A DNA stretch of 62,259 nt from a virus (Duplodnaviria > Caudoviricetes). The position numbers and the translations under genes are program-made. Numbering within the stretch: position 1 is the first letter of the stretch; every line of letters starts with the position of its first letter. The stretch covers positions 1 to 62,259 of IMG/VR virus record IMGVR_UViG_3300046003_005119, one strand, 5' to 3'. Shown in pieces: positions 2,703 through 60,338 of the stretch. The notes beneath the pieces are model-generated. The model saw nothing but the letters and a program-made list of their open reading frames with translations. It searched no databases and was not told the origin of the DNA.

Positions 2703-3671
2703 TCACTTGATCCTCCGGATGATATATTCACGACAGGCTTTCTGCCAGTCAGTTGCGGCGCATTCTCCAATGGCTTTGAGAGCCATCTCGTGATCCTTGG
2801 CTTTGTGCCAGTTCCACGCTCGAAGCATCGGCAGCGCCACTCGCTTGAAGAACTTGTCGCGATAGCCGATGACTTCTCCATGCTGAACAAACATCTCGAG
2901 ATCTGCCATCCAGTCCTCGATCGGACCGTTCACCATCGGATACGGCGAAACTTCGCCGCTTTCGTATTCAGCTGAAGCAATCGGAAGAGACAAGAGACTG
3001 GAGTGCTTCTCGAAGGTCGACATATATGCGTGGAAGTTTGTTGAGATCTGTTCATAGATGCCGACCTCAACACCGATCCACGCCGCGACGACTTCCTGCA
3101 TCATCGAGAAGTGAACAGCGTTCGCACCGTATGCACCCCAGATCATGTCGTTGGAACGGTTGAAGACATACATGTCCAGCCGACCGTCGACGATACGGAA
3201 GTTCACCATCTGGTTGCAAGGAAAGTCCTTGCCTTCACGACCGAGATCAGAAGCAGGGTCCCACATTCCCATCGATACACGACGGTCATCCGGGTTCTCC
3301 TTCAGAAGCATGGCACAAGTCGCCAACTGATCGACACCGAACCACTCGCGCCAGCGATGACCGTAGGCTCCATGGAAGGTGACACCATCATCGCTGTAGT
3401 TCGCGATCGATCCGTTGAATCGACTGATCCACTCAACATCGTTGCGACCAGCAATCATCCAGAGGCCTTCCATAAAGTGGAAGAACGGATTTGCATCCCT
3501 TTCAGGGAAGAACATCACTCGCTCTTTGGGCTTCTTGTAGACTGTAGTCACAGGAGTCCTGAACACCCTGACAGGACCGTTGCGGCTGTCGCGAAGAATG
3601 CCTTCGTCACGAACAGTGTGAAGCCCAAGGAGAAGGGCTTCAGAGACGTTGCGGACAGTGATCACTCTCAT
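2703..3671 (-). CDS. Thymidylate synthase-fold enzyme, probable dUMP hydroxymethylase
   Basis: GAYGHRWR, PDDRR, catalytic PC (DFPCN), RSND..WG...N with Asn at the dUMP-specificity position, NFHAY; neighbours are modification genes. Confidence 0.85.
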   Translation of the reverse strand: MRVITVRNVSEALLLGLHTVRDEGILRDSRNGPVRVFRTPVTTVYKKPKERVMFFPERDANPFFHFMEGLWMIAGRNDVEWISRFNGSIANYSDDGVTFHGAYGHRWREWFGVDQLATCAMLLKENPDDRRVSMGMWDPASDLGREGKDFPCNQMVNFRIVDGRLDMYVFNRSNDMIWGAYGANAVHFSMMQEVVAAWIGVEVGIYEQISTNFHAYMSTFEKHSSLLSLPIASAEYESGEVSPYPMVNGPIEDWMADLEMFVQHGEVIGYRDKFFKRVALPMLRAWNWHKAKDHEMALKAIGECAATDWQKACREYIIRRIK

Positions 3672-4954
3672 TATGCGAGAACTCCAAAGTGGTTGAACAT
3701 GAGATCCGAGTATTTCTCTCGGATGGATGGATCGTCAGTTCCACGAATCGTGTCGATGGAACCGAAGGCGAGATCGATGACTCGCTGAGCGACGATCTCA
3801 CGGTCGAACATCGGCAGAAGCTGAAGCGCAGCCTCGCGATAATTCGCGGCGAGTTGGTGGCTCATTTCGCCAACCTCGAGCACGAGATTCGCGTATTGCT
3901 CCGGATCGATATGACCATCAGGGATATCCCAGTAGTGAACACCAGCCTCGAAGATCGAATCACCCATTCCCATCGGTCTCGCAATGGGAATAGCACCATG
4001 GATCATAGCATCAACGACAACGCGGTTCCAATGACCGCCGACAGCGGCATATTTGCGCGACCAAGAAGGATCGACAAGAGCGCGGGCGCTTCCGAGCATC
4101 TCTTCCACTTTGGGCGTGTTCCAGTAGCCCTCATGAACCATACCATTCTCAAGAGCAACTTCCCAGAAGCGACCGCCCTGACCACGGCTATCAATCGGAT
4201 GGTAATACTCAGGCTTGCACTTGTCCTCGCTCGTCATGTATTGATACTCGATGCCGAGACCTGCGACATGCCGATATTCGTCGTCACGCTTGGGCGGCAT
4301 GTAGGCGATTGCCTCGATCAACTCGTGAGCATGTTTCCACGCCTTGAAGGTCTGCATGTTGACGAAGCCACGCTTGCGTTCTGCCCAAGAAGCGACCTTC
4401 CGCACTGGGTTGAACTGAGGATTCACGACCAGCGCCCGAGGTGTCGTCAGAAAGTTGGCTCCGTTCAGAGCGCAGTCATGAACGCAGGCAATACCAGAAA
4501 GCTGATCTTGGATCGCCAGAATATGCGGCGCTCCTGACTTTACGTTTCCGTCGTGAACGAAAGCAATCTGCTTGATCGATCTCGGCAGATCATACAGATT
4601 GGTCCATTCATGGTTTCCGAGGTTATCCTTGTTTTTGCTCGGAACAGGAACCGTCCAGATGATAAGGTCATAATCGACCATAATCTGTTTCGCGGTTGCC
4701 AGCGCAGCCGATCCCTTGTAGGCAATCCGGTCATTCCGACGGAAGTTCCAGCCCTTGCCTTGGTCGTGTGGGATTCCACTTGGGCCGACGATCCAGTCAC
4801 CAGTCTTGTTTTGTTCGTGAGCCTTAATGGCATAGACGAACTGTTTGAGATGGACTGTGTGTCCAAGATCTTTCAATCCACCGATCAACTGCTCAGTGTG
4901 ATTGATGATTCCACCAAGGTCCATGACCTGATGCAATGCAACGAGAATTCGCAT
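3671..4954 (-). CDS. GT-B fold glycosyltransferase (probable DNA-base glycosyltransferase)
   Basis: MRILVAL...GGI..H...L...L..LGHTV N-terminus; AFVHD; LVDPS...VVVDAMIHGAIPIA C-terminal GT4-like motif. Confidence 0.8.
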   Translation of the reverse strand: MRILVALHQVMDLGGIINHTEQLIGGLKDLGHTVHLKQFVYAIKAHEQNKTGDWIVGPSGIPHDQGKGWNFRRNDRIAYKGSAALATAKQIMVDYDLIIWTVPVPSKNKDNLGNHEWTNLYDLPRSIKQIAFVHDGNVKSGAPHILAIQDQLSGIACVHDCALNGANFLTTPRALVVNPQFNPVRKVASWAERKRGFVNMQTFKAWKHAHELIEAIAYMPPKRDDEYRHVAGLGIEYQYMTSEDKCKPEYYHPIDSRGQGGRFWEVALENGMVHEGYWNTPKVEEMLGSARALVDPSWSRKYAAVGGHWNRVVVDAMIHGAIPIARPMGMGDSIFEAGVHYWDIPDGHIDPEQYANLVLEVGEMSHQLAANYREAALQLLPMFDREIVAQRVIDLAFGSIDTIRGTDDPSIREKYSDLMFNHFGVLA

Positions 4955-5012: not shown

Positions 5013-5201
5013 CTACTTATCTCTGCTTGCACTACTTTTGATTGCGAAGATAAGCATGATTAAAGGTGTGAAGCCTGAGAATAGGAACATAAAGAACGCT
5101 ACACTCAGGCTCAGATGTTTCTTCTTGATATCATACCAGAAGAGACTCAGCATGAACCACATTGACCACCAGACAATGAGCCAGAAGAGCCAGTTAGGCA
5201 T
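5013..5201 (-). CDS. Small two-TM membrane protein
   Basis: MPNWLFWLIVWWSMWF...; start moved to ATG 5201 to avoid a long overlap. Confidence 0.55.
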   Translation of the reverse strand: MPNWLFWLIVWWSMWFMLSLFWYDIKKKHLSLSVAFFMFLFSGFTPLIMLIFAIKSSASRDK

Positions 5202-6084
5202 GATACTTACTTCTGGGTTTCCCCTGACCAAGACGAACTCGTTCATACTTATCGAACTCGCAGAACGCGAATTGGATATCAGTGGGAACAAGTCTCCCGT
5301 CGTGAGTCCACAGCATCTCTTGCCATTCGCCGATCTTCCGAATTATGTCCATGGATCGTTGTTCAGTGAGAGGAGTTGCAGAGTCATCGCCCAAGAGACG
5401 AGCAGCACCACGACGAGCTCCAGGACCGATAGGAGTCCAGCTATCCCAGTCGACGGGATAAGAGAACGTCCCGTCCTTGGAATGCTCGAACGTCTCGTTC
5501 CAGAAACCAGTGTAGGTCGTGTCGAGCAGAACTTCCTTGGTCATGAAACCAGTTCCACCGAAGCCGCCGATCATACGCATCCGATCAGAGACTTCTTCCC
5601 AGCTTTGGGTCTCTTCAGCAATCTTCACGAGTTGCGGTGTCTTCGCGTGAAGATCCTTGAGAAAGTAGTCGACAACCACTTCCTGCTTCGGAGCGGAGAT
5701 ACCTTGGTTTGTGATGACATATGCTCCGGTAAACACTCGTTCGCGCGAAGCCAGACGTGATTCTGCCAAGTCCTTAATGCCATCAAAGTCGAACGTGTCA
5801 TACTGTTGCCATCCGATCGCTTGTGCAAATTCCCAAGTGCCGAAGTATCTGTATAGCGCACAGTTCATGAGGATGGTGCGCTTGTCATCGTTGAAGTTCG
5901 GCCCATAGAAGAGCCGACGAAGCTGATCGCTCGTGCGATCGTGATGTCTCCTCACGTTTGTGAATTTGTAAGTCCGTAGGATCTCGTCATCAGTCCACGG
6001 AAATGAAAAACCCGCCTCCTTCCGGAGGCGGATCTCTTCGCGTTCGTTGAGATAATCGTAGAACGCTTGCGCCCTGAGGCCCAT
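5194..6084 (-). CDS. aGPT-Pplase1 family (5-hmdU DNA kinase helical-domain-like) protein
   Basis: ERE.IR.RKE.G..FPWTDDEILRTYKFTNVRR..DR, FTGAY, GPGARRG, CEFDKYER...G.G.PR motifs of the family. Confidence 0.8.
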   Translation of the reverse strand: MGLRAQAFYDYLNEREEIRLRKEAGFSFPWTDDEILRTYKFTNVRRHHDRTSDQLRRLFYGPNFNDDKRTILMNCALYRYFGTWEFAQAIGWQQYDTFDFDGIKDLAESRLASRERVFTGAYVITNQGISAPKQEVVVDYFLKDLHAKTPQLVKIAEETQSWEEVSDRMRMIGGFGGTGFMTKEVLLDTTYTGFWNETFEHSKDGTFSYPVDWDSWTPIGPGARRGAARLLGDDSATPLTEQRSMDIIRKIGEWQEMLWTHDGRLVPTDIQFAFCEFDKYERVRLGQGKPRSKYHA

Positions 6085-6086
6085 GA

Positions 6087-6872
6087 TTAGGCCGAGGCCA
6101 CGGGTTCAGCCGGAGCAGCGGCTTTCGCCTCAGCTTTGGCTTTCGCTTCGGCTTCCTTGGCAGCTTTCTTCGCAGCCAACTCGGCGTCACGGGCGACCTT
6201 GGCAGCAGCACGTTCGGCGGCCTTGGTTTCCTTCGACAGATCAGGGTCGACCAGATTGTGCTTCTTATACCAAGCAGCGCGCCGCTCAGTATACTCCGCA
6301 TCGGTCGGCTCGGTCACCTTCATGATGCCCTTGTCGGTCCAGTTGTAGACGTCCCACGGCTCGGTGCCATCGGCCTCGATCACGTCGACGATGGTCATGC
6401 CGTCCTTGTAGTTCGCCCAACGGTGAGCGCGACCGTGGTCGGTGCCGTTGTGTTCGCCGATCTTCGAAATGGTCGAGAACATCTTGCGGGTCGGACGCTT
6501 GACCAGTTGCGGCATGGACGATTTCGCGGGCTTGCGTTCTTTGGGTTCCTTCGGAGCCTTGGGTTCCTTCGGAGCCTTGGGAGCTTTCGCAGGCTTGCCA
6601 GCAGCGACGGGAGCACCAGCATCAGCGGCCTCGGCGGCGGAAGTCGACTCGAACCGCTCCAGAGCCTTCCAGGTCTGCTCGACGGCAGCGTCGTGATCTT
6701 TGAAACCGCGAATGCTGGCGACGCCGAGATTGGTCGCGACGAGGTTCCGCAATTCGAGCAGCTTGTCGTCGGCGAGAGCGGCGAGAGCGGCTTGGGTGTA
6801 GGAATTGCCGAGGAAGGCAATGGTCTTATCGGTCATGATTGACTCCATTTCTACGTTTATTGGAAGCGCCAT
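6087..6872 (-). CDS. Hypothetical protein with KAPKEP repeats and Lys/Ala-rich C-terminus
   Basis: Strong codon bias, GGAGG RBS, own promoter; low-complexity basic segments. Confidence 0.75.
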   Translation of the reverse strand: MALPINVEMESIMTDKTIAFLGNSYTQAALAALADDKLLELRNLVATNLGVASIRGFKDHDAAVEQTWKALERFESTSAAEAADAGAPVAAGKPAKAPKAPKEPKAPKEPKERKPAKSSMPQLVKRPTRKMFSTISKIGEHNGTDHGRAHRWANYKDGMTIVDVIEADGTEPWDVYNWTDKGIMKVTEPTDAEYTERRAAWYKKHNLVDPDLSKETKAAERAAAKVARDAELAAKKAAKEAEAKAKAEAKAAAPAEPVASA

Positions 6873-21360: not shown

Positions 21361-21986
21361 AGAGCCTCCATGCACTCGAAAGTGATTCCATAGATGCTCA
21401 TGCTGTTGATATCCCACTGGGTTAGCGGATCTTTGAGACGGAACTTTCCGACACACCCGCTGACGATGACTGCGTCGTTATCAGCAGGAGAAGATCTCAA
21501 GGTCGGCCAGATATCAAGAGTCACCTGACCAGTTCCATCGGAGTTCGCATCAACGAGAACCTTGTGCAGCTTCGAACCTGAGCCAGTCCCAAGTTGAATA
21601 TAGTCACCAGCCTTCAGATATCCAGTCGCTGAGAGAGGAGCACCATCGATGATGAGGCTGCTCCCAGTTTGAGATGCACCTTTCACCAACGGAGTTCCAG
21701 GAGCAGTTGAAGCCGAACCCTGAGGAGTTGCACAGTTGGGATCAGAAAGCAAGAATGTTCCGACCCTTCCGTTGAGACTCAGAAGGAATGAGATCCAAGG
21801 CTCAGCCTTGTTTCTCAAAAACGGAGAGATCTTGACCGTTGCCTCCCACCTCTTTCCAGGATGAGACACAACCTGCTGGTTGAATCCATACGGAGACATA
21901 CTGAGCGCGTCAGCATTGACAGCCCGCAACGAGATTTCCTCAATCGCGTAGCCAGTAGGGAGAGACAGAGGGTATGAGATTGTCAT
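21357..21986 (-). CDS. Distal tail protein
   Basis: Directly after the tape measure gene; MTISYPLSLP...SPY...QQV...G.RWEA. Confidence 0.7.
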   Translation of the reverse strand: MTISYPLSLPTGYAIEEISLRAVNADALSMSPYGFNQQVVSHPGKRWEATVKISPFLRNKAEPWISFLLSLNGRVGTFLLSDPNCATPQGSASTAPGTPLVKGASQTGSSLIIDGAPLSATGYLKAGDYIQLGTGSGSKLHKVLVDANSDGTGQVTLDIWPTLRSSPADNDAVIVSGCVGKFRLKDPLTQWDINSMSIYGITFECMEAL

Positions 21987-24900
21987 TATCCACCAAACGC
22001 ATTCTTCATCTGTCCACCTCTTCTGCGAGCGTCGATGATTGCGCTCTTGGTCTTATCAACGATAGCCGGAACAGCTTTCATGATCTCAGAACGAATTGCA
22101 GTTACGTCGACGCCAGACCCACTGACATGAATGTCATTGTTCACGATGATAGTGTCGCCACCAGACCCAGAGGCCTGAACTCCAAGCTTCCCGTTCGCAC
22201 CTCTAGTGAGAGGCATGATCGCCTCTGGGCCAGCTTCACCCATGATGCCGAGGCCAGTGTTGGTCTTGAACATAGTCGCTCCGGAAACGACGCCACCATT
22301 GGCGAACTTCCGCAGCTGAGAACCTTGGCTCCAGACACCACCATCAGCTTGTTTAGTGAACGCCCCAGAAATAAGACCAATGAGACCAGTTCCAGTTCCA
22401 GTGGAGGCGTTGAAAGAACCAACCAGCCTCTGCACAACGAGAACTCGATAAAGTTCCTTGATGATCTCGTAAGCCATCTTCTTGAAAGCTTCTCCCATCG
22501 TCTGAGTTCCCTCGACGATTGACATGAAGGCTTCTTCCATGGAAGATTTGATTTTGTCAGAAATCGATTGCATCTGAGCGATTGCTTCTTTCTTCGCGTT
22601 CAGAGCCTCAATCTCCTTAGTGACATTATCGATCTCCAGCTGAGAGTATTTATCACGATCAGCACTCAGTGCAGTCTCAACCTGTCTTTGGGCTTCAGAC
22701 AACCCAAGGAGACGAGTTTCAAGCGCAATCTGTTCGCGGAGTTTCGCGAGAGCATCTTCGGATGCACCACCTCCACCACCTGCTCCATCAGGAAGAAGTG
22801 AATCCTGAAAGTCCTTGAGATCCTTCGCGTCCTTAGCCTTGTTGAAGAGAGCCAGGAAGCCCTCTTTAGCTTTCGCGACGAAGCCACTGTTCGCAAATCT
22901 GCTGAGAGCATTTGAAATGCCAGTTGTGATTCCTCGCAGAGCGCCGAAGGAAGAACTCAAGACAGCCAGTAGCTCTCTTGCTTTATCGATTGCAGGCTGA
23001 ATCATAGCAGCCAACATCTTGATCTTTCCTCCAAGAGTGTCAGTCGCTCCGCCAGCAGCAGCGATGACTCTCTCTAGAGCCTGAACTCTGGACAGCTGGA
23101 TAACCATCTGATCAGAAACGCTTTCAGCGATCTTGAGACTTTTGATAGTCGTCAAGAGATTTTCCATCTCAGTTCTTTGTCTCTGCTTCAGGACCTCGAT
23201 TGAATTTTCTCCGTATATTACAGACAGCCTGAGGATCTCAGCTTTCTCTCTCATCGGAGTGAGAATTTCCATCGCCTTCTGGTATTCAGCATCACTTTCA
23301 GCACGAGTTTGTCCCATGAGCTGAAGTTGCTGTCCCCACGTTCCGACCATGAACTGTCTCAGCTCACGCATTCTGAACATCTGTTCATTCTGACGGATCA
23401 GTTCTTGGACAATCATCTTTTCTTGGTTCAGGGCGAGCTGAGCTTTCATCGCGAGATCTGTGGCAGAAGCTTGAAGGCTCACTATCTCAGATTCAGTCGA
23501 TCCAGACCCAAGACCAGAGGAAGGATCGAACGTATAAGGATTCGCAGCCGCGGACTCTACATTCGCCTGTGCGACGTCTCTGATCGATGCCGCCAGAGCT
23601 CTGTTCTCTGCCGAGAGAGCTTTTGCCGTAGAGAGAGCCTTTGCTCCTCCTCCTGAGGCATACTCAGCCATCGAATCGTTCAGTTGCTCTTGGACTGATT
23701 TCAATTCCTCAGTTGCATCAGTCTGCAAAGACATGTAGAGCTGAACCGCAAGAAGACCAGTCAGAAGAATTCCGATAGGATTCGCCATGATCGTAGCGAA
23801 CAGAGCCATGAATGCGCCACGAACAGCACCAATAGCGACAGCAACTCCAGGAAGGACAGCGCGGAGCCGGACGAACCACCCTAGCGCCGCTGCCTGTGCA
23901 GCCGCTAGGCGCGTGGTTGCAACGGCAAGCCCCGTAGCCTGCGCCGTAGCCTGTGCAGCCGCTAGGCGCGCAGCCTGTGCGGCCTGCGCGCCAAATGCAG
24001 CCTGTGCAGCCCGTGCAGCCGCTAGGCGCGCAGCCTGTGCTGTCTCAACACCCTCAACAATGGAAAGTTTCTGAGAAAGATTGATCAAATTCTGCTTCGC
24101 GATCGCAAGGTTCACGAATTGACCAGTCTGAGCGTTTCTGGCAACGCCATTTCTGATCACATACTGTGACTCGAGAACTTGCTGCTGCAAGAGCAGTTTC
24201 TTCTGGGCGATGAGAGCAAGATTCTGCTGAAGTTCAGCCTGACGACTCGCGTATGCTGCGAGAGTTGTTCTGGTCTCTATGTTAGCTGCGGTTACGACAG
24301 CAGCAGATTTTGCGACGACCGCTGTCCGTATAGCGATCAGCCTCTGCAGAACTTCAGTCTGCTTTATTTGGGCAGCTTTCAATCCTGCAACGTAAGCCAT
24401 GACAGCGTGAATAGCTTTTCCTGCGAATACACCAGCCAGAGTCACGCCGACAGCAGTCGCGGTGACCATGATTCCTTTCAGGTTATCAGCGATACTGATG
24501 ATCGCCATAGAAACCTTTTCAGAGAAACCGGTTGCATCATCGAATGCGTCCAGGAGGGCCAAGAAGGAATCTCGAACAATACCAAGAGACTGGCCAATCG
24601 TCGGAACGAGTTTCGCGAAGTCCTTATCAATTCCAGCGGCAGAGTTTCTGAAAGCTGCGAGGATTTGATCAGCCGTGATCTTTCCTTCAGTTCCAAGCTG
24701 ACGGAGTTCACCACGGGTCACACCGAATTGCTTCGCGATGATGTCCGCAACCAGAGGAAGCTGTTCCAGAATTGAACGAAGTTCATCGCCGCCCAAGCGG
24801 TTTGACGAGATACCTTGCCCAAGCTGAATGAGCGCAGCGTTCGCTTCTCGAGCGTTCGCACCAGATAGAACAGCAGCCTTGCTCACAGACTCAGTAAATC

Positions 24901-25267
24901 TAAGCAACTCTTTCTGCGAGACACCGAGTTCTCTTGCAGACAGAGCCGTTCTGTTATAGATCTCGTTCACGCCTTCGAACGAGGTTCTTGATTTCTTTGC
25001 GATCTCAAACAACTGAGTCTGAACATCTTGCAGGTTCGATGCAGAGATCGTGGTCAGCTTCAACCTGTTTTCATAGTTCGTAAGCAAATCGAGCTGACTG
25101 GTCAACCCTCTCAGCAGACCAGCGCCACCGATGACGAACAACGCACGCTCAAGAAGAAAGATGCTTCGAGTTGCCCTGTTCGCGGCCATGCCAAGTTCGT
25201 CAAGATTTCTCTTGATGACATTCGTTCCGTTTTCACGGAAGATGATATTGACGTGTTCAGTTCCCAT
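21986..25267 (-). CDS. Tape measure protein (1093 aa)
   Basis: QLGQG.....L.GDELRSILEQ tape-measure domain; FANGGVV...MGEAGPEAIMPL C-terminus. Confidence 0.95.
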   Translation of the reverse strand: MGTEHVNIIFRENGTNVIKRNLDELGMAANRATRSIFLLERALFVIGGAGLLRGLTSQLDLLTNYENRLKLTTISASNLQDVQTQLFEIAKKSRTSFEGVNEIYNRTALSARELGVSQKELLRFTESVSKAAVLSGANAREANAALIQLGQGISSNRLGGDELRSILEQLPLVADIIAKQFGVTRGELRQLGTEGKITADQILAAFRNSAAGIDKDFAKLVPTIGQSLGIVRDSFLALLDAFDDATGFSEKVSMAIISIADNLKGIMVTATAVGVTLAGVFAGKAIHAVMAYVAGLKAAQIKQTEVLQRLIAIRTAVVAKSAAVVTAANIETRTTLAAYASRQAELQQNLALIAQKKLLLQQQVLESQYVIRNGVARNAQTGQFVNLAIAKQNLINLSQKLSIVEGVETAQAARLAAARAAQAAFGAQAAQAARLAAAQATAQATGLAVATTRLAAAQAAALGWFVRLRAVLPGVAVAIGAVRGAFMALFATIMANPIGILLTGLLAVQLYMSLQTDATEELKSVQEQLNDSMAEYASGGGAKALSTAKALSAENRALAASIRDVAQANVESAAANPYTFDPSSGLGSGSTESEIVSLQASATDLAMKAQLALNQEKMIVQELIRQNEQMFRMRELRQFMVGTWGQQLQLMGQTRAESDAEYQKAMEILTPMREKAEILRLSVIYGENSIEVLKQRQRTEMENLLTTIKSLKIAESVSDQMVIQLSRVQALERVIAAAGGATDTLGGKIKMLAAMIQPAIDKARELLAVLSSSFGALRGITTGISNALSRFANSGFVAKAKEGFLALFNKAKDAKDLKDFQDSLLPDGAGGGGGASEDALAKLREQIALETRLLGLSEAQRQVETALSADRDKYSQLEIDNVTKEIEALNAKKEAIAQMQSISDKIKSSMEEAFMSIVEGTQTMGEAFKKMAYEIIKELYRVLVVQRLVGSFNASTGTGTGLIGLISGAFTKQADGGVWSQGSQLRKFANGGVVSGATMFKTNTGLGIMGEAGPEAIMPLTRGANGKLGVQASGSGGDTIIVNNDIHVSGSGVDVTAIRSEIMKAVPAIVDKTKSAIIDARRRGGQMKNAFGG

Positions 25268-35366: not shown

Positions 35367-36905
35367 TCAATAATGTCCAGAAGTTGAGCCAGTTCCGCCC
35401 ATATTCGAGATATGACGAACGAAATATCTCGTTTCGTCAGCGATGTGATCTTCGGCATCCGTGTTCACGTCGTCCTGATCTTTCTCATCTCTGGGCAAAA
35501 CTGGCACCGTTTCGATGAATGACAGACATTCGTCGAAGATGAACATTCCAGGCTGTTCACGAGGATACATGAGAAGGACATCCTCTTTAGTCGGATGTTT
35601 TCTCATCGTCGGATGAGCATTTTTCAGCCTCTGACGCATCTGGTTCCAGCCTGTCACACGCGATCCAGGACGTTTATCAGCCGGAGCCCACTGAATTCCA
35701 GGATACTTGTTTCCATCATCCAATCTGACTTTGACTTTCATGTCTGTCGCGATGCAGTTGCCGTTCTCAGCGGCGAAAATCTGCGAGTCAGCGACTCCGC
35801 CCTTCACTCGACACCAGTCTTCACCTGGAATTCTCCAGTTCCACGCCAGCTCTTTCTCGACAATTCCAGCCGCGATGTCAGTCGCGAGCATTCGGAGACC
35901 CTCGTTGGGCTTTCCTGTCGAGCCATACCATTCTTTCACACGGAAAGAGTCTCCCTTGATCGTCGAGCGCCATGATCCATCACGAAGCTGAACGTCTTCT
36001 CCATTCGAAATGGCCCACCAGCCCACAGAGAAAGGCTTCGATTCTCCCCAGTCGAAGGAGCGGATGATACGCCAATTCAACGGTATCTCAAAGTTTGAGA
36101 TTACATTAAATCGAGGTTCCCATACATCGTCGAACATACCGCCAGCGACGATGTCCCATGACCCTTCGAGCCATGCTTTCTTCTCCGCCGCGTTTCTCGC
36201 TGACGCTGCAATCTTCTGTTTGTATTCAGGATCGGCCTCGAGCAGAGCCGTGTTCTCGTCGATATGCGAGTGGATGCTCAGGCGAGGAGGCTCGGAGTTC
36301 CCTTCTTCATCTTTCAGATCGCGACGGACGATCATGTTCATGCTGTTGGGCTTGAACCTGTGTTTCACCCAGTTGTGACCGGGACCATATGGGTTCGTCG
36401 TCGCGCGAACCATACGAGGCATTCCCTTTGTCGACGAACGACAACACGAGAACATCCTCTTGTAGCCCTCATCATTCGCCCAGTTGCACAACTCTTCCCA
36501 ACCAATCCAGGGATATTCGTGACCGTGATAGTTCCAATAGTCGTCAGCTTTCATGAACTGGCGAAGCAGAAGCTGTTCTCCTCCAGGAAACGTCCAGACA
36601 TGCTCGGAGTTGTTGAATTTCGCTTCCGGCCAGATCTGAGGGATCCACTTTTTCGTTTTCGAGATAATATCCGTCAATTGTTTATACGTTTGACGGAATA
36701 GAATTCCCTTCCAGCCAGCCCCGTATCCCTTTCCGACGTGCATACAGAAGCTCATAATCAATGAGTCTGTCTTGCCGCCTCCGCGAGTTCCTTCGAACAA
36801 GACTTCGAAGATTGGGTGAGCTGCGAGGAAGGCCTCTTGGCTTCCTCGCATGGGTCGCCAAATCACGTTCTTGGGGAATTGCATACTCATTTCAGCACAT
36901 ACCAT
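35367..36905 (-). CDS. terL: Terminase large subunit
   Basis: GTRGGGKT, WEEL, TTNPYGPGH.WVK, RSFDWG, EDHIADE.RY. Start probably 36887 or 36881. Confidence 0.95.
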   Translation of the reverse strand: MVCAEMSMQFPKNVIWRPMRGSQEAFLAAHPIFEVLFEGTRGGGKTDSLIMSFCMHVGKGYGAGWKGILFRQTYKQLTDIISKTKKWIPQIWPEAKFNNSEHVWTFPGGEQLLLRQFMKADDYWNYHGHEYPWIGWEELCNWANDEGYKRMFSCCRSSTKGMPRMVRATTNPYGPGHNWVKHRFKPNSMNMIVRRDLKDEEGNSEPPRLSIHSHIDENTALLEADPEYKQKIAASARNAAEKKAWLEGSWDIVAGGMFDDVWEPRFNVISNFEIPLNWRIIRSFDWGESKPFSVGWWAISNGEDVQLRDGSWRSTIKGDSFRVKEWYGSTGKPNEGLRMLATDIAAGIVEKELAWNWRIPGEDWCRVKGGVADSQIFAAENGNCIATDMKVKVRLDDGNKYPGIQWAPADKRPGSRVTGWNQMRQRLKNAHPTMRKHPTKEDVLLMYPREQPGMFIFDECLSFIETVPVLPRDEKDQDDVNTDAEDHIADETRYFVRHISNMGGTGSTSGHY

Positions 36906-37246
36906 CCATCAAAGGTCGACAGCCCAAGACGAGAGGGATGAGGATCATGAACGATCGTTCCGGAAGAGCGACACCATACTACAGCATGACGTATTCCGCG
37001 TGGAGAGACTCCAGCACGAATTACGAAATCTGGCCAATGTGGTTTCGCTCTGGGATAATAGTCGAGGTTCTTCGAAGTTCTTTGTTCCAGAACGTCAAAG
37101 AACTCGTGATTCCAGCCACCACCTTCTGCGATCGGATGCGGAAGATCGATATCCTCTCCGAGCAGAGTGTAGACACACGCTCTCATGCAGTCCCCGTATT
37201 GACCTCTCTCGTGGTCAGACAATACTTGCTGATCGAATGTCTTCAT
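36887..37246 (-). CDS. Hypothetical protein with papain-like Cys-His-Asp pattern
   Basis: GDCMRAC...HAVVW...VHDPHP. Confidence 0.65.
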   Translation of the reverse strand: MKTFDQQVLSDHERGQYGDCMRACVYTLLGEDIDLPHPIAEGGGWNHEFFDVLEQRTSKNLDYYPRAKPHWPDFVIRAGVSPRGIRHAVVWCRSSGTIVHDPHPSRLGLSTFDGWYVLK

Positions 37247-37572
37247 GATATCTGCAACCTCGCTTGAAGGACTGTGATCTCATGTCTCGTGAGATTACAC
37301 CCGCGTTCGATTCGATAGGTGCTCAGCCTCAGACCACGAATTTGTTCGAGCCATCCCGATTCCGTTTCTATGAAGCGGAATCGCGTTCCATCTTTGAACC
37401 GACCTCGGCGCGTTCCTAACTGCAGATCGGAGAATTCGTCTTGATTACGAATTCTCCAATCCACTATTCCTCCTACAGGAATCACGATCAGAAGATCATA
37501 CATATATTCTACCTCCGGTCGGAGCCGACACACATAGTGTCTATATGAACCCAGAAGGACACGCGGGCGCAC
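37243..37572 (-). CDS. Hypothetical protein
   Basis: ORF coupled to the downstream gene; start uncertain. Confidence 0.45.
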   Translation of the reverse strand: MRPRVLLGSYRHYVCRLRPEVEYMYDLLIVIPVGGIVDWRIRNQDEFSDLQLGTRRGRFKDGTRFRFIETESGWLEQIRGLRLSTYRIERGCNLTRHEITVLQARLQIS

Positions 37573-37752
37573 CGTGGATCACGAAAATTCAGTTACACTC
37601 ATTCTCGCTGCTCACGCAAGTGCAGCTTCTCATGAGTCTCGTGAGGCTCGTCGATTCGTTTCGAATTTTGGTTTCTTGTTTCTCGGTTCTTGATCTTCGT
37701 AGGATTTCGAATGATGTGGGTGAAGGGGCGGGGAACGGGACCGCCAGCCATA

Positions 37753-37820
37753 CGCCCCACGCGCAAGCCGTGCGTGGGGCGGGGTGGTAGCGGTTGCCTG
37801 CCCCGCAACGGGGGCAGGCG
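37753..37820 (-). terminator. Two GC-rich hairpins downstream of the Ala-rich gene
   Basis: CGCCCCACGC/GCGTGGGGCG and GCCTGCCCC/GGGGCAGGC stems. Confidence 0.55.
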
Positions 37821-37832
37821 GTTGCTTTGGCG

Positions 37833-38315
37833 CTATGCCTTGGCAGGCGCAGGCGCGGGCGCGGCAGCGGTTGCCACAGGCGCGGCAGCGGCAGCGGCAG
37901 CGGTTGCCACAGGCACAAGCCAAGCCTGCGCGGCGGCCCATTGCGGCATGTTGTGGCGCTGCCAGCCCCCATTTGGCGGGGCAAGCGTGGGGCTTGCGGC
38001 TGCACTGGCCACCAGCGCGGCGCGGTATTGCGCCAAGGTAAAGCCGTTGGGCTGCACCTTGGCAAGCGCCTGTGCCACTTGGCAGGCAAAAGCGCGGTGG
38101 CCACGCTGCCCCACAGGCCAGCCAGCGCTTGCGGCTGCACTGTAGGGCATATAGGTGTAAAGTGCCGCGCCAATGGCCACAGCAACGGGCGCGGCGGTTG
38201 CGGTTGCAACGGGCGCGGCGGGCGCGGGCGCGGTTGCGGTTGCGGTTGCAACGGGCGCGGGGGCAGTAGCCTTGCCAGCGGTTGCGGTTGCGGTGTTTTT
38301 GTTAGCTTGTGCCAT
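37833..38315 (-). CDS. Ala/Thr/Pro-rich protein with no Asp or Glu (160 aa)
   Basis: Preceded by the AGGCTACCA leader and a promoter, followed by hairpins; lies wholly inside the GA/TC-free island. Confidence 0.7.
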   Translation of the reverse strand: MAQANKNTATATAGKATAPAPVATATATAPAPAAPVATATAAPVAVAIGAALYTYMPYSAAASAGWPVGQRGHRAFACQVAQALAKVQPNGFTLAQYRAALVASAAASPTLAPPNGGWQRHNMPQWAAAQAWLVPVATAAAAAAAPVATAAAPAPAPAKA

Positions 38316-38369
38316 TGTGGTAGCCTTTGGTTACAGGGTAGCAGCACCATTGCCGCTATGCCCTGCCCC

Positions 38370-38399
38370 TATATAGCGCCATAGCGCGGCAAAAGCCAA
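38370..38399 (-). promoter_or_regulatory. Promoter of the Ala-rich gene
   Basis: TTGGCT-N18-TATATA. Confidence 0.5.
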
Positions 38400-38524
38400 G
38401 TAACATGTTGTTACAGATTGTAACAATTTGTTACCGGAAATGCAGTAACGTTTTGTTGCAGGCTGTAACAATTTGTTACCGGAAATGCAGTAACGTTTTG
38501 TTACAGCCTGTAACAATTTGTTAC
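38400..38524. repeat. Array of six GTAAC-N5-GTTAC palindromes (45-bp tandem period)
   Basis: Boxes start at 38400, 38420, 38445 (one mismatch), 38465, 38490, 38510. Confidence 0.9.
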
Positions 38525-38693
38525 CGGAGACGAGAGACCGAACGAGAGACCTACCGACGAAGATGAAGATGACGAGTGAGATCTCCTCTGTCGGTTCTGT
38601 CGTATCGGTTCATGACTGTCGGTTCGATGATGAAGAAGATGATGAGTGTCGAGCCCAAGAAGAAAGAGCCTCAATCGGCTCTTTCTTGTCGGT

Positions 38694-38882
38694 TCAGTCG
38701 TAGACGAACGACTCGAGGTAAGTGTCAATCACATCGCCATCTTTCGAAACGAACTCTGTCACCTCATACCCGTGGTGGTTCACATTAGTCCGCTTCGTGA
38801 GACCCTCTATCTCTGCTGGGACAGAGCGATAGATCGTGACATGACCTCGCCGATTGGTGCGAATATACATCTTATCGCTCAT
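38694..38882 (-). CDS. Small early protein
   Basis: ATGA-coupled to the upstream ORF; GGAGG RBS. Confidence 0.6.
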   Translation of the reverse strand: MSDKMYIRTNRRGHVTIYRSVPAEIEGLTKRTNVNHHGYEVTEFVSKDGDVIDTYLESFVYD

Positions 38883-39088
38883 GCCCGACCCTCCGCACGA
38901 ATGGCCTGACGCACGGCCAGCGGCGTCTCAACGCCGTGGGCGAAGGCGGGGCGGCAGACTTGGATGACGCCGCCGCACTGTGAAAAGCGACGAGTCAACG
39001 CGAAGATCTGACGCTGGAGCGACTGACGGTCGTCGGCCAGACGACCAGTGAACTCTGCGCGCTCTTTATTCCAAGGATTGATCTGCAT
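38879..39088 (-). CDS. Small early protein
   Basis: AGGCTACCAAATG leader. Confidence 0.65.
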   Translation of the reverse strand: MQINPWNKERAEFTGRLADDRQSLQRQIFALTRRFSQCGGVIQVCRPAFAHGVETPLAVRQAIRAEGRA

Positions 39089-39286
39089 TTGGTAGCCTTT
39101 CGGTTTGGGTTAAGTTGCCGTAAGACCATGTTATTACACAGAAATTTAAGAAGCAACTCATTTATATCCAATCCTCCGGACTCATATCGGAAGAGGCTCC
39201 CGATGAAGAAGATGAAGAAGATGAAGATGACGAGTCTCTCATCCAGATCTTCTTCATCATCTTCATCTTCTGTATGCTCTCAGACA

Positions 39287-39316
39287 ACAGAAGAGGTGGA
39301 ATTCCACCTCTTCTGT
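39287..39316. repeat. Perfect 30-bp palindrome / terminator-like hairpin
   Basis: ACAGAAGAGGTGGAA-TTCCACCTCTTCTGT. Confidence 0.8.
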
Positions 39317-39325
39317 CGGCCCTTT

Positions 39326-39592
39326 CTACGAGGTCAGGACGATATCGGCGAGATACGACAGACCGTCGCAGATATCTTGGGTGGTAAAGATTTCGGCGCC
39401 GCTGACGGTGTGTGCGATGACCAAGCCGTTCTCCATGATGAACAACTGGCCCGAGACTTCGTAGCCTTCTTCAAAGTGACGCAGCCACACCATGGATTCG
39501 TCGATGATTTCAAAACGAACTTCGGGGATGACCTCATCACAGTGAAACTTGATGTCGGCGATTTCGGCGGGGGTGAACTTGCGATTGAGCAT
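39326..39592 (-). CDS. Small acidic early protein
   Basis: Leader motif before ATG 39592 (MLNRKFTPAEIADI). Confidence 0.65.
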   Translation of the reverse strand: MLNRKFTPAEIADIKFHCDEVIPEVRFEIIDESMVWLRHFEEGYEVSGQLFIMENGLVIAHTVSGAEIFTTQDICDGLSYLADIVLTS

Positions 39593-39749
39593 AGCTGGTA
39601 GCCTTTCTTGGGTTGCCTTGCCCTTACAGTATAGCCCAAAGAGGGTGGAGAGTGTAGCACTATGAATCGTGGTCTTCGTGGCCGGAAGATGATGAAGATC
39701 TCGTCGGAAGAGGCCGACGAGCATAGAGAAATCCCTATGCTCTGTCGGT

Positions 39750-39965
39750 TCAGGCTAGCGCCCCTGCAACTGCTTTTTCAAAGGCTTCCAGCTTTTCCAC
39801 CACTTCGACCATGTTCGTGCATGTCGGGCTCATGGTCATCTCGATCGTCCCCCAAAAGTTCATCAACTTCCGCGTGGGGTGGTGGTATTGCGCCACAAAT
39901 TCTTCTTCCGGATCCTGCCCTTCGCGGTAGTAAAGCAGGTAATCGCCAGTGTCTTTCGTCAGCAT
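39750..39965 (-). CDS. Small early protein
   Basis: Own promoter and leader motif. Confidence 0.65.
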   Translation of the reverse strand: MLTKDTGDYLLYYREGQDPEEEFVAQYHHPTRKLMNFWGTIEMTMSPTCTNMVEVVEKLEAFEKAVAGALA

Positions 39966-40000
39966 TTGGTAGCCCTTTCATTTGGTAGCCTTGCCCTTAC

Positions 40001-40029
40001 AGTATGGCAGTTAGAAATCTGAGAAGCAA
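40001..40029 (-). promoter_or_regulatory. Early sigma70-like promoter (copy 1)
   Basis: TTGCTT-N17-CATACT; same sequence at 40413-40441. Confidence 0.75.
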
Positions 40030-40068
40030 TTCATATATGTCCAGTCTTCTTCATCTATATGAGATACC

Positions 40069-40103
40069 GATGAAGATGAAGATGAAGATGAAGATGAAGA
40101 TGA
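40069..40103 (+). repeat. (GATGAA)n intergenic microsatellite
   Basis: Five full units plus GATGA; related tracts in neighbouring spacers. Confidence 0.85.
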
Positions 40104-40144
40104 TTCCATCGGAGGAGGCCGACGAGTCCCCACACTCTGTCGGC

Positions 40145-40378
40145 TCACTCGGCTCTTAGAATGAGCTTCATGAGCTCATACAGATCGTCACAGAACGTAA
40201 CGAACCCGAGCTCGCTGATATAGATATGCTGCTCTCCGCTGATGTAGCCGACGTCTCCCATATCTGTGAAGACTTTGTTATCCTCTGTATCAGCGATACC
40301 GTTACCGAGTGTGCAGATATACATGGAGATGTCCTCCAGTTCTGCTTCGGTGAAGTCACGCGGCTCATAGATTTTCAT
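40145..40378 (-). CDS. Small acidic early protein
   Basis: Own promoter and leader motif. Confidence 0.65.
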   Translation of the reverse strand: MKIYEPRDFTEAELEDISMYICTLGNGIADTEDNKVFTDMGDVGYISGEQHIYISELGFVTFCDDLYELMKLILRAE

Positions 40379-40412
40379 TTGGTAGCCCTTTCATTGGTAG
40401 CCTTGTCCTTAC

Positions 40413-40441
40413 AGTATGGCAGTTAGAAATCTGAGAAGCAA
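40413..40441 (-). promoter_or_regulatory. Early sigma70-like promoter (copy 2)
   Basis: TTGCTT-N17-CATACT. Confidence 0.75.
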
Positions 40442-40603
40442 GTCATGTATGTCAGGTCTTCTTCTCTCTCGTCCCGTTCTTCTTCATCATCTTCTATATC
40501 AGAAATCGAGGATGAAGATGATGAAGAAGATGAAGATAAAGAAGATCGCCATACCTGTGAAGATACGGCGATCGACTGACTCTGTCGGTTCAGTTCTGTC
40601 GGT

Positions 40604-41293
40604 TCAGAAGGGATCGTCGTCCTCTGTCGGCTCGTTGGAGAGCCCAAGAGGAGTAGGAGTGACATCCTTCGCTTGAGAGAATCGCTTCTCCCAATCATCG
40701 ATACTCGTCATTTCAGCTGGAGCGACGAGAACACCGCCAGAGTGATTGACAGCGATTTCCTGCTTGTCACGGTATCCGGCGTCGTGCTTCTTCAATTCAA
40801 GTTCGATCAGTCGTATCGGGTAGACTGTCTCTCTGGAGACGAGGCCTCCATTGCGATCGAAACTCTCCTTGACTGTCCCGTTGAAGACGAGGTCTTGATG
40901 GTGACCGATCAGTTTGTCCTTGTATGCAGTTTCGGCGAGAAGCATCGCTTCAGCGAAGTCTTCATCTTCCTCCAACGCTTTCCGGACTGTCTGAGGTGAG
41001 ACACCGGCGGCTGCTGCGCTCTCTCCCATCCGTCCCCATTTCATGAATTCGTTGAGGAATCGGCCCTTCGCAGCTTCGTCAAAACGATTGCGAGCCATGC
41101 GAACGACTGTCCGCCATTCACCGGTTTCGGGATCCTGTATATCCATCGCCTCGACCCTCGATCTACGAGACAACAGAGAGCGAGGAGCCTGACGAGCGCG
41201 GAAAGCATCATCATCATATCGGTCTCTGTAGGACTTCGGGTCTTCATCGTCGCTCATAATTATCTCTCCATCTATCCGCGTCAACTTGATCAA
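40604..41293 (-). CDS. terS: Probable terminase small subunit
   Basis: HTH FL......G....SAAAAGVS.QTV......DEDF.EA; C-terminal N.SGGVLVAP. Likely start 41257. Promoter TTGCTA-N17-TAAACT at 41311-41339. Confidence 0.65.
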   Translation of the reverse strand: MIKLTRIDGEIIMSDDEDPKSYRDRYDDDAFRARQAPRSLLSRRSRVEAMDIQDPETGEWRTVVRMARNRFDEAAKGRFLNEFMKWGRMGESAAAAGVSPQTVRKALEEDEDFAEAMLLAETAYKDKLIGHHQDLVFNGTVKESFDRNGGLVSRETVYPIRLIELELKKHDAGYRDKQEIAVNHSGGVLVAPAEMTSIDDWEKRFSQAKDVTPTPLGLSNEPTEDDDPF

Positions 41294-59230: not shown

Positions 59231-59650
59231 TTACCCTTTCGATCGCTGTGAGATGTAGTCCAGAAGTCTCTGCCTCTCCAGACCGTTCGCCATGTAGAGT
59301 TCCGCTTCCGCCATCATTTCCGGACGCGTCATCAGTCCCCACCTGTTTTTGATCCACAGGCCGTCGAAGAAGAACCATGAACGAGAAACCTTCGCCGCCA
59401 CCATCGCCAGCCCGCCCGCTCTGCTCCGACGATATAGCCAGACTCCCTGCTCTTTCGTCAGCGGGTGTTTGAACCTGACTGGGTTCTGATCCGCTCCCTT
59501 GGGCCAAGCATCGAGGTTCTTGCATTCGAACCATCCTCCAATAAAATTCACGTCAGGAATACCGAGGCCTGTCATGGGGCTTTCGATACAGACAGCGTCC
59601 AGTGTCGCTAACGCAGACACCAGAACGCTCTTCATACTAGCCTCTGACAT
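59231..59650 (-). CDS. PD-(D/E)XK nuclease (resolvase/VRR-NUC-like)
   Basis: MSE...GIPD......WFECK...T.EQ..W..R....GG. Confidence 0.75.
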   Translation of the reverse strand: MSEASMKSVLVSALATLDAVCIESPMTGLGIPDVNFIGGWFECKNLDAWPKGADQNPVRFKHPLTKEQGVWLYRRSRAGGLAMVAAKVSRSWFFFDGLWIKNRWGLMTRPEMMAEAELYMANGLERQRLLDYISQRSKG

Positions 59651-60338
59651 AGAGGCCTGTGCTGATCTTCTGGAAGGTGTTCAGCTTGGGCTTCTTCACA
59701 TGAGTGAAACCCTGCTCGATCAGGGAATCGTCAATCATGTTCATGCTTTCTTCCCAGTCAGGCCGGTGAAAGTGGAACTCGATAGCGATCGTCTCAACGC
59801 TATCAGGCAGATGATCCCAGTTCAGTGAATACTCGCCTCCCTCGCAGTCGCACTTGATGAACTGAACTCCTGTCCGCAGGAGTTCCTGGAAATGGATAAC
59901 AGGAACTTCCACGGAGGCGCGGCCCTTGAACGGTTCAACCGAATTCGTAGCAGAGAACGTCTTGCCCAAGTAAAGAGGGATGCACAAGTCCGGGAAATCG
60001 TGGTCGACGACAGCGGCCATGTGAAGTTCAGTATCACCACGAATGTTCTTCCGAAGAACCTCCTCTGCTCGCGGATCAGGTTCGACGGAGATAATGCTGT
60101 CAGGCGGATAGTTCCGGCAGATGAACACGTTGAAAAAGCCGCAATGAGCCCCAAAGTCCAGGACACGTTTTCCCTTGGCTCGCTCGGCGACTTTTCCATA
60201 GTCACGCTTCTGCTCGGTGAAGACATACGGGTCTCCAGCACCAAGATAGTAGACTTGGTGAACGTCATGATATTGCATGGTGATGTCCTGAATTTGCAGT
60301 TGGCTTTTTACCATAGCGGCCAGAGGTGGCCGAGACAA
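59637..60338 (-). CDS. FkbM-family SAM-dependent methyltransferase
   Basis: VLDFGAHCG, VEP, AAV, IKCDCEGGEY, IEFH. Confidence 0.85.
   Translation of the reverse strand: MSRPPLAAMVKSQLQIQDITMQYHDVHQVYYLGAGDPYVFTEQKRDYGKVAERAKGKRVLDFGAHCGFFNVFICRNYPPDSIISVEPDPRAEEVLRKNIRGDTELHMAAVVDHDFPDLCIPLYLGKTFSATNSVEPFKGRASVEVPVIHFQELLRTGVQFIKCDCEGGEYSLNWDHLPDSVETIAIEFHFHRPDWEESMNMIDDSLIEQGFTHVKKPKLNTFQKISTGLYVRG

Follow-up and report, generated by a model that had tools for sequence, protein, structure and literature searches.

A GA/TC-free gene island in a probable thymidine-hypermodifying siphophage encodes a protein without aspartate or glutamate that is related to an insert domain of bacterial McrB

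Introduction

Why would a phage gene encode a folded, conserved protein that contains neither aspartate nor glutamate? The question is raised by gene X, a 160-codon open reading frame (ORF) in the IMG/VR virus record IMGVR_UViG_3300046003_005119 (Duplodnaviria; Caudoviricetes). We analysed the entire record of 62,259 bp (here termed the window), which is a near-complete siphophage genome (completeness 98%) with nearly every gene on the minus strand. An initial annotation, made by a model from the letters alone, had described X as an Ala-rich protein whose composition follows a constraint on the DNA, and had interpreted it as a first-expressed, basic DNA-binding or adaptor protein that allows the modified rest of the genome to be expressed. 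Our analysis confirms the observation and shows that the constraint on the DNA is wider than the ORF; the interpretation as a whole is partly supported. Two features carry the argument:

37833–38315, minus strand: gene X, 160 amino acids, no Asp or Glu, isoelectric point (pI) 10.46, TAG stop codon, 58 homologs, ratio of nonsynonymous to synonymous substitution rates (dN/dS) 0.04–0.23
37740–38416, both strands: GA/TC-free island, 677 bp, 67.7% G+C, spanning a promoter-like region, the 5′ untranslated region, ORF X and 3′ hairpins

Results

A 677-bp island without GA or TC

GA/TC is the commonest dinucleotide pair of the genome, with 11,027 occurrences and a relative abundance (rho*) of 1.42, and it is absent from both strands of the island. 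The next longest GA/TC gaps in the window measure 170, 122 and 58 bp. From the island's own base composition 73.5 GA plus TC are expected, and the lowest count reached in 100,000 mononucleotide shuffles was 43. Recoding the X protein with the codon usage of the genome (20,000 trials) gave a mean of 33.1 sites, 9.6 GA against 23.6 TC, and a minimum of 18; the non-repetitive core of about 90 amino acids by itself is predicted to hold about 22. Chance is excluded as the cause of the absence. No dinucleotide pair other than GA/TC shows such gaps. In each of three complete genomes (the window and its relatives G001 and G002), a GA/TC density of 0.03 or less is reached in no 400-bp region except the X locus. 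Seen from the thymines, 36.9% of T outside the island stand in TC context, compared with 0 of 219 inside.

The non-coding flanks, 101 bp before the start codon and 93 bp after the stop codon (194 bp), are free of GA and TC as well. Because of these flanks, and because recoding predicts about 33 sites where none is seen, the ban acts at the level of DNA, beyond the amino acid sequence; the absence of Asp and Glu is its consequence, since the GA ban bars GAN codons. The initial annotation had claimed as much for the ORF, and the claim holds, also in view of the normal Asp/Glu content of homologs outside the ban (see below). The island is also covered, with few differences, by contigs that stem from two further studies (runs X2 and X3); among the island differences listed, the variants at 37746, 37752, 37760 and 38124, read from the sequence, create no GA or TC. 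The sequencing runs that contain the stretch are labelled as lake, freshwater, aquatic and groundwater metagenomes, and two runs labelled RNA-Seq are flagged as probably DNA.

We rejected two simple origins of the island. An APOBEC-like TC-to-TT mutational process does not fit, as the island is G+C-rich and TT makes up only 27.9% of its T contexts, with no enrichment beyond. Avoidance of the restriction sites GATC, GANTC or TCGA is too narrow for the loss of all GA and TC.

Across the genome, codon usage strongly favours TC- and GA-containing codons (TTC 82%, ATC 69%, GTC 44%, TCN 78% of Ser and GGA 31%), and the usage applied in recoding also strongly prefers CTC. The rho* of GA/TC is higher in the window than in PaMx11 (1.25) and in the relatives' loci (1.05–1.36), and TA is strongly under-represented (rho* 0.44).

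Shorter GA/TC-free patches of 90–196 bp with a G+C fraction of 0.67–0.75 occur within other genes of the window, G001 and G002. Those of the window lie at 23874–24043, in the Ala-rich part of the tape-measure ORF 21986–25267, and at 1581–1702, in the Ala/Pro-rich tail of ORF 1528–2157 (DUF3310); recoding predicts 11.5 and 10 GA/TC, respectively, and none is observed in either. One short patch matches the X island over 33 bp with 85% identity, and the tape-measure patch is in part a threefold repeat.

Gene X as a coding sequence

Translation and a codon check bore out the description of X as a 160-amino-acid ORF ending in TAG, with 60 Ala, 18 Pro, 14 Thr, 4 Lys and no Asp or Glu, and with all four Ser encoded by AGT or AGC. 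In 25 other genes, Asp and Glu account for 12.8% of 10,726 codons, and the chance of a 160-residue protein without either is about 3e-10 (0.872^160). It should be noted that the length of the ORF is no evidence for a gene: a stretch that lacks GA/TC contains TGA on neither strand, and long ORFs of 253, 196, 160, 151 and 103 codons overlie the island in all frames. The coding frame of X is fixed because homologs and dN/dS support it. The 58 homologs came from a search of 5.8 billion proteins; each is metagenomic, and no Pfam family is assigned to any of them. Among 1.84 billion representative proteins, a profile search matched only 52. The dN/dS values given above stem from nine pairs compared in the X frame.

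Profile searches assigned X to no Pfam, PHROGs, PADLOC or NCBIfam family, and 50,697 phage records searched by tblastn contained no match to X. X is absent from the cultured relatives, in which terS stands beside terL, and in the window it is set in a variable run of small-gene cassettes. These findings show X to be a real, selected gene of accessory character.

The ban is maintained in relatives

Scans confirmed 7 X loci in viral contigs and 16 in metagenome contigs. L012 duplicates L003, L019 duplicates L008, and the protein of L024 is identical to that of L023; leaving out the duplicates and the truncated L008, L015 and L016, we counted 18 complete ORFs. GA is reduced to 25% of expectation or less in 17 of these and TC in 12; seven contain no GA or TC at all, and 14 encode neither Asp nor Glu. 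Avoidance of a dinucleotide by homologous genes, which the initial annotation had proposed as a check, is thus found. Six relatives carry an uninterrupted GA/TC-free island over the X homolog:

L003: 516 bp
L006: 593 bp
L010: 711 bp
L011: 851 bp
L021: 586 bp
L022: 765 bp

The islands of L005, L018, L020 and L025 have one to six interruptions each. Between the window and L010 or L011, synonymous divergence (dS) reaches 0.9–1.0, and none of about 54 synonymous and 46–50 nonsynonymous differences creates a GA or TC. The ban is therefore actively maintained and not merely inherited, the islands having persisted with synonymous sites close to saturation. Across the 107 family proteins that we fetched, 71 are without Asp and Glu and 36 contain some, up to ordinary levels, and the acid-free state changed at least 15 times on the family tree. 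The ban has been relaxed or gained many times. PaMx11 has no island free of any of the ten dinucleotide classes.

A second small ORF follows X within the islands of L010 (2453–2665), L011 (3259–3477) and L022 (about 949–1047), all coordinates being approximate. Read by eye, each of the three encodes a hydrophobic, probably membrane-spanning peptide without Asp or Glu.

A gene kit for thymidine hypermodification

The window contains two genes that bear on DNA modification:

2703–3671, minus strand: thymidylate-synthase homolog, candidate dUMP hydroxymethylase (PF00303, E 4.3e-20; phrog_5131, E 8.9e-123)
5194–6084, minus strand: 5-hydroxymethyldeoxyuridine (5-hmdU) DNA kinase, which is believed to determine the sequence context in which thymidine is hypermodified (PF18723, E 1.8e-36)

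The kinase match scores 126 bits against a cut-off of 25; both of the complete relatives that were searched, G001 and G002, have the kinase too. Ribonucleotide reductase, helicases, primase and ligase genes complete the picture. For the ORFs beside the kinase (3671–4954 and 6087–6872), profile searches gave a sub-threshold glycosyltransferase match or nothing, and downstream transferases of the aGPT-Pplase/AADT type were not identified among these neighbouring ORFs. Gene order and terminase similarity place the phage near the PaMx11/Ab18-type siphophages of Pseudomonas, Xanthomonas and Stenotrophomonas. As described in two reports (PMC5889632, PMC8989533), phages with such a kit put 5-hmdU in the place of T when they replicate and subsequently hypermodify some of it within the DNA. 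The window phage is thus probably a member of a clade of thymidine-hypermodifying siphophages that use the 5-HMUDK pathway.

7-Deazaguanine as a GA-linked modification was rejected: TGT/DpdA was not found in the genome, and the control search matched 14 of 14 genomes. The accessible text on phage 9g gives no motif for its modification (PMC5567051). An FkbM-type methyltransferase gene lies in the early region at 59637–60338 (PF05050, E 2.3e-7; phrog_8156). The polA gene (family A DNA polymerase) is split over both ends of the record, with its N-terminal part at 1270–2 and its C-terminal part at 62257–61340; because of this split the start point of the record is arbitrary, and the assembly is circularly permuted or was opened at an arbitrary point.

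An X-like domain inside bacterial McrB

Outside phages, an X-like domain occurs in 7 of 185,579 species genomes scanned, namely, by title, three Paracoccus, Rhodobacter capsulatus, Phaeovulum, Rhodovulum and Candidatus Halocynthiibacter, all of which we take to belong to the Rhodobacterales. At these seven loci, as well as in the long family proteins P0078 and P0089 and the fragment P0079, the domain lies inside an AAA_5 protein. The R. capsulatus protein (892 residues) matches the McrB structure 6ut3 (E 1.9e-58) and that of Escherichia coli McrB, 6hz4 (E 2.9e-29). Its residues 521–680 replace chain residues 102–160 between the Walker A and Walker B parts, which amounts to about 100 extra residues, and the X-like stretch covers 571–657. 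Aligned with this protein by hhalign, the X profile gave a probability of 98.7 (E 2.9e-16, 45% identity, 85 columns), and X and the inserts have the motifs GFxL..YR..L, GGW..HNMP.W and Q.WLVP in common. In both loci examined (two of the seven), McrC is the next gene (PF10117, E ~3e-73). The similarity shows that X is homologous to the McrB insert domain. X itself is no McrB GTPase; with 160 residues it has no AAA+ part, which only the bacterial homologs carry. X thus stands alone, with disordered arms and without Asp or Glu, whereas the insert sits inside an AAA+ GTPase that is followed by McrC.

The matched region of the seven inserts contains 9–13% Asp plus Glu. At positions where the inserts have these residues (e.g., GGWEKHNMP and YREALV), the phage proteins have Gln, Ala or Arg. 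Because the inserts carry normal Asp and Glu, the fold does not need an acid-free sequence.

In a quick tree of 72 rows, whose root is unknown and many of whose forks are unresolved, the 10 inserts and the stand-alone P0083 form one clade (SH-like approximate likelihood ratio test, 96) among far more diverse stand-alone forms. A search with the P0078 insert for further fused forms returned only P0078 itself. The predicted complex of the X core with the AAA+ part of the R. capsulatus McrB homolog scored 0.00, which speaks neither for nor against binding. As far as these comparisons go, the McrBC link points towards defence, counter-defence or the reading of modified DNA more than towards a first-expressed role. 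In R. capsulatus SP18 (L032, 10562–16231), the McrBC pair with the X-like insert adjoins GTA_TIM, Phage-tail_3 and DUF2793 genes, which look like gene-transfer-agent or prophage tail genes.

A winged-helix-like core between disordered arms

The X protein consists of three parts:

38175–38315, minus strand: N-terminal low-complexity arm of Ala, Thr, Pro and Val, with GCAACC-type short repeats (families D2 and D3); its length varies among homologs
37896–38174, minus strand: folded core, residues ~48–140, with the motifs GFTLxQYRxAL, GGWxxHNMPxW and QxWLVP
37836–37895, minus strand: C-terminal Ala/Pro-rich arm, delimited by alignment and AlphaFold2

Low-complexity arms around a core of about 90 residues had been noted in the initial annotation and are seen in the AlphaFold2 model, in which the predicted local confidence (pLDDT) is below 50 for residues 1–48 and 144–152 and the core between them is ordered. 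The full-length model is accordingly poor outside the core (mean pLDDT 60.5). The core is conserved among homologs, the arms being of variable length, and modelled from an alignment of 66 rows that includes the bacterial inserts it reaches a pLDDT of 88.5 and a predicted template modelling score (pTM) of 0.82.

The topology of the core, N-terminal strands followed by three helices and a strand, resembles that of winged-helix and RiPP recognition element (RRE) domains. Compared with 48,161 chains in VIA-align, the core model gave a best Z of 5.5 and the first model one of 6.3, values in a range that, as the tool warns, is common for unrelated folds. Winged-helix domains dominate the match lists (JetA, MukF, ORC/Cdc6, cullin WHB, MCM, H1 and Z-alpha), and the winged-helix domains of JetA and MukF, the ORC/Cdc6 WHD and cullin WHB match the core at Z 4.8–5.5. 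Similar matches come from PqqD-like RRE domains: MibB, MccB, TbtB and NisB match the model at Z 3.9–4.8, the first three with root mean square deviations (rmsd) of 2.5–3.4 and, against the core, with Z 4.7–4.8. In sequence, X is related to none of the Pfam, PHROG or PADLOC families.

The initial annotation had suggested a structure search with the core. The model proved confident, but Foldseek against the Protein Data Bank (PDB) returned nothing at E ≤ 0.001 for either model, and searching the PDB sequences with a profile brought up just two rows, both at chance level (E 0.1 and 1.1). BFVD contains one probable, unnamed homolog (E 3.7e-3), and the ESM Atlas yielded only unnamed viral clusters (best score 0.87) and weak structural rows. 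We conclude from the models that the X core is probably winged-helix-like, without a close structural relative, and that binding of DNA and of peptide are both possible. The suggestion of a basic DNA-binding or adaptor protein is in line with the pI and the winged-helix-like fold; it is weakened by the low best Z of the core and by the similar match to peptide-binding RRE domains. Tails of the histone H1 or AlgP type need Lys-rich repeats, whereas X has four Lys in all and arms made of Ala, Thr, Pro and Val.

Cassette anatomy and neighbourhood

The island and its surroundings contain the following further elements:

38370–38399, minus strand: promoter-like TTGGCT-N18-TATATA, found by eye, inside the island
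38318–38327, minus strand: translation-initiation motif AAGGCTACCA before the ATG, 18 matches compared with 1.63 expected
37740–37819, minus strand: two G+C-rich hairpins directly after the stop codon, without a T-run (−60.3 kcal/mol, z −3.99, none of 200 shuffles as stable)
38399–38533, plus strand: three 45-bp direct repeats with GTTAC/GTAAC inverted motifs (family D4, 84–100% identity)
40604–41293, minus strand: terminase small subunit (terS), upstream syntenic anchor (phrog_4044, E 2.4e-22)
35367–36905, minus strand: terminase large subunit (terL), downstream syntenic anchor, assigned by similarity and synteny

On its upstream side the island begins about 20 bp ahead of the −35-like hexamer; it ends at the foot of the second hairpin and corresponds to one transcription unit. 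A consensus scan reported neither a promoter nor a terminator for X, and both are elements that we infer from the layout. The AAGGCTACCA motif is common to the neighbouring small genes and to genes of the early region. The 45-bp repeats adjoin the promoter-like site on its upstream side and have the appearance of operators or binding sites. Relatives have the same layout, with lineage-specific repeat arrays of differing sequence, a TTGGCT/TATA-type site and 3′ hairpins. A terS homolog lies upstream of X in 11 of 13 loci checked and terL downstream in six, the remaining contigs ending earlier.

Between terS and terL, small promoter–gene cassettes are parted by (GAAGAT)n-like blocks, and their content varies between relatives and strains. 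The stretch from terS to X (38540–40600) consists of small-gene cassettes, with 11 copies of the (GAAGAT)n-like blocks (family D1), and profile searches found no family for the small proteins encoded there. Two near-identical 71-bp upstream segments (39982–40052 and 40394–40464, 93% identity) carry a promoter-like TTGCTT-N17-CATACT site together with the GTAAGGGCAAGG and AAGGCTACCA motifs. Contigs of run X3 omit 257 bp (37243–37501, most of ORF 37243–37572) and 1258 bp (39264–40523); because these two stretches are skipped, accessory content differs between near-identical strains.

Discussion

What could make one dinucleotide pair intolerable over a single transcription unit? We propose that TC is the hypermodification motif of this phage, that the cassette stays ordinary DNA and that X is a counter-defence against modification-dependent restriction. 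As a complete chain the proposal is tentative, and we would not be surprised if one of its links failed. GA/TC would be the double-strand footprint of TC, the context that would be hypermodified by the phage's 5-hmdU DNA kinase pathway; the 36.9% of T outside the island that stand in TC would be modification targets, and the cassette would be the one piece of the chromosome that always remains ordinary DNA. X, a small winged-helix-like protein expressed from its own host-type promoter, would act where hypermodified DNA meets McrBC-type modification-dependent restriction. Its domain and the Rhodobacterales McrB insert would share one ligand, most simply hypermodified DNA, and X would compete with or blunt modification-dependent restriction enzymes. 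Having no modifiable sites, the X gene would be spared both by a modification-dependent nuclease and by X, and could be expressed at once. The logic of first-step transfer (FST) in phage T5, a target-free segment encoding a counter-measure, would here be turned towards type IV restriction. We consider it doubtful, although conceivable, that the cassette is a modification-free safe harbour kept at the cost of an 18-letter protein alphabet, with X a hypermodified-thymine reader that bacterial McrB captured as a sensor.

Published work bears on several of these steps. According to PMC6449724 and PMC13458397, thymine hypermodification occurs at TG or TC in phage M6, in ViI and in phi W-14, and for the most part at TG in phage 15599; PMC8989533 gives up to half of thymidines as hypermodified, a range within which the TC share of 36.9% falls. 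We read TC as the source of the banned word because the 5-hmdU kinase pathway is the only system here with a published dinucleotide-level preference. Nucleases that sense modification are countered by inhibitors which hypermodified phages encode, as the abstract of 10.1101/2025.03.31.646159 states, and T5 is described in PMC10644984 as evading nucleases only if the first-entering DNA is without their sites.

A number of points weigh against our proposal. Its weakest is the need for a kinase that acts on TC only: TC specificity of the window phage is something we infer, and the M6 kinase is said, in PMC6449724, to modify TG. Because 52.5% of the T in the island stand in TG context, a TG-acting kinase would modify the island and undo the rationale. 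The ban is not universal either, with 33 GA/TC in 447 bp in L023/L024 and 47 in 528 bp in L009 (about half the normal density), and partial cases are uneven, L017 having 25 TC and no GA, and L008 and L015 more GA than TC. Neighbouring small genes with similar promoter and ribosome-binding signals are rich in GA/TC, and modified DNA is therefore evidently expressed without a ban. The promoter was recognised by eye, the consensus scan having missed it, and the fold matches are middling (Z no higher than 5.5–6.3). For a protein that is made only once the DNA has entered, shielding the roughly 11,000 sites of each genome would be quantitatively hard. Finally, the tree seems to favour one acquisition of a phage-type domain by McrB over the reverse, in which a phage would mimic a host domain.

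The nearest rival keeps the TC-motif and ordinary-DNA steps and places X inside the phage's own biology, as a protein that reads or binds hypermodified DNA for transcription control or for DNA organisation and packaging and that was later captured by McrB. SPO1 TF1, which acts on hmU-DNA, is a model for such a role, and McrB-family enzymes combine an AAA+ GTPase with DNA-reader domains. Modified sites would be lacking in the gene so that X neither binds nor silences it. The position of the McrB inserts as one clade amid diverse stand-alone forms, the winged-helix-like fold, the basic pI of X, its place between terS and terL and the operator-like repeat arrays upstream of X in the window and its relatives all suit this explanation. 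We nevertheless regard it as unlikely: X is missing from cultured relatives that hypermodify, PaMx11 among them, and is therefore no core function; several lineages no longer have the ban; and RRE-type peptide-binding domains fit the predicted model about as well as DNA-binding winged helices do. Quite unlikely, in our judgement, is the idea already contained in the initial annotation, that the cassette enters and is transcribed first and that X is a basic DNA-binding protein or RNA polymerase adaptor for expression of the modified remainder. A promoter-like site of its own, an initiation motif common to early-region genes and a terminase-adjacent position that could be near a genome end speak for it, as does the template strand, the more consistently motif-free of the two (17 of 18 ORFs are depleted of coding-strand GA, compared with 12 for TC). 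Yet this asymmetry is largely given by the Asp/Glu-free protein, as the recoding values for GA and TC indicate; the adjacent small genes and all early genes are GA/TC-rich and would be expressed from modified DNA; cultured relatives that hypermodify do without X; and the sole "direct terminal repeat" seen among the relatives, that of G002, proved to be an assembly overlap of 127 exactly matching bp and carries no information on genome ends.

The ban might also be one on DNA that has nothing to do with hypermodification, imposed by a phage or host nuclease, nickase or modifier of very short, GA/TC-containing specificity. The avoidance is strand-symmetric and includes non-transcribed promoter DNA, and TC is a putative modification motif; family searches of the window proteins, however, identified no such enzyme, and the one pathway present with dinucleotide-level specificity in the literature is the 5-hmdU kinase route (PMC6449724, PMC13458397), which leaves this explanation very unlikely in our eyes. 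A constraint on RNA or translation is still harder to credit. Messenger RNA free of GA (and UC) might resist an endoribonuclease, or a protein free of Asp and Glu might be made under tRNA attack, and it is true that coding-strand GA is absent even where TC is common (L017) and that acid-free proteins persist in 14 of 18 loci. The strict islands ban GA and TC alike, however, and the ban takes in the non-coding flanks and, upstream, some 55 bp that precede the probable start of transcription; other phage mRNAs are rich in GA and UC, and the tRNA version leaves GA at codon junctions and in Gly and Arg codons uncovered. Least credible of all is a non-adaptive by-product, in which G+C-rich, Ala-rich, repeat-expanded DNA happens to lack GA/TC. 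The X arms are made of short repeats, and all three complete genomes have shorter G+C-rich patches of 90–196 bp elsewhere; but the non-repetitive core alone should hold about 22 sites, the flanks are no repeats, and islands persist at dS ~1 under strong purifying selection. The recoding and dS results bring this explanation close to being refuted.

To our knowledge, the sequence motifs of thymidine hypermodification are known only indirectly, via restriction-resistance patterns. An absolute, conserved GA/TC ban in kinase-bearing phages offers an independent pointer, read from sequence only, to a TC-specific system, and if our proposal is correct, a genome sequence alone would reveal the modification motif (TC). 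The locus exemplifies selection on a dinucleotide that is powerful enough to rid a folded, conserved protein of two amino acids, and the same domain with normal Asp and Glu outside the ban is a natural experiment on the tolerance of a fold for a reduced alphabet. The McrB-insert homology ties an uncharacterised phage family to modification-dependent restriction. Whether X turns out to be a new counter-defence or a new reader domain for hypermodified DNA, either would be of value to phage biologists and could serve as a reagent; the proposal, if true, would provide a portable domain that recognises hypermodified thymine and a rule of DNA chemistry that dictates protein composition. Scans of phage genomes for motif-free islands could reveal, in general, modification motifs and the genes that must escape them.

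Among known systems, the window resembles M6/PaMx11-type thymidine hypermodification in its thymidylate-synthase homolog, its PF18723 kinase and its PaMx11-like gene order; it differs from PaMx11, where terS adjoins terL and there is neither an X gene nor a dinucleotide-free island. Ocr of T7 and Arn of T4, the latter directed against McrBC, are small accessory phage proteins that blunt restriction as highly acidic DNA mimics. Arn acts on McrBC, the arena that we suggest for X, but X, without a single Asp or Glu and with a pI of 10.46, cannot work as an acidic mimic of the Ocr, Arn or ArdA kind. The anti-END proteins of hypermodified Pseudomonas phages are likewise small inhibitors of nucleases that sense hypermodified DNA; their abstract mentions no motif-free gene island such as that of the window (10.1101/2025.03.31.646159). 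The closest parallel in logic is the FST region of T5, a defined segment without host-nuclease targets that encodes protection for the rest, as set out in PMC10644984. With 0 GA/TC in 677 bp the window cassette is likewise target-free, provided that TC, as we suppose, is the relevant target. T5 avoids the targets of host nucleases over 8% of its genome, whereas the window avoids a dinucleotide, presumably the phage's own modification motif, in a single 0.7-kb cassette; unlike that of T5, the ban is broad enough to strip two amino acids, and first entry is here only conjectured. In the published literature, supplements aside, we found no description of a modification-motif-free gene island or of the X family. 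The logic of site avoidance is thus known from the T5 FST region, and what is new is the object avoided, the dinucleotide scale and the effect on the protein alphabet.

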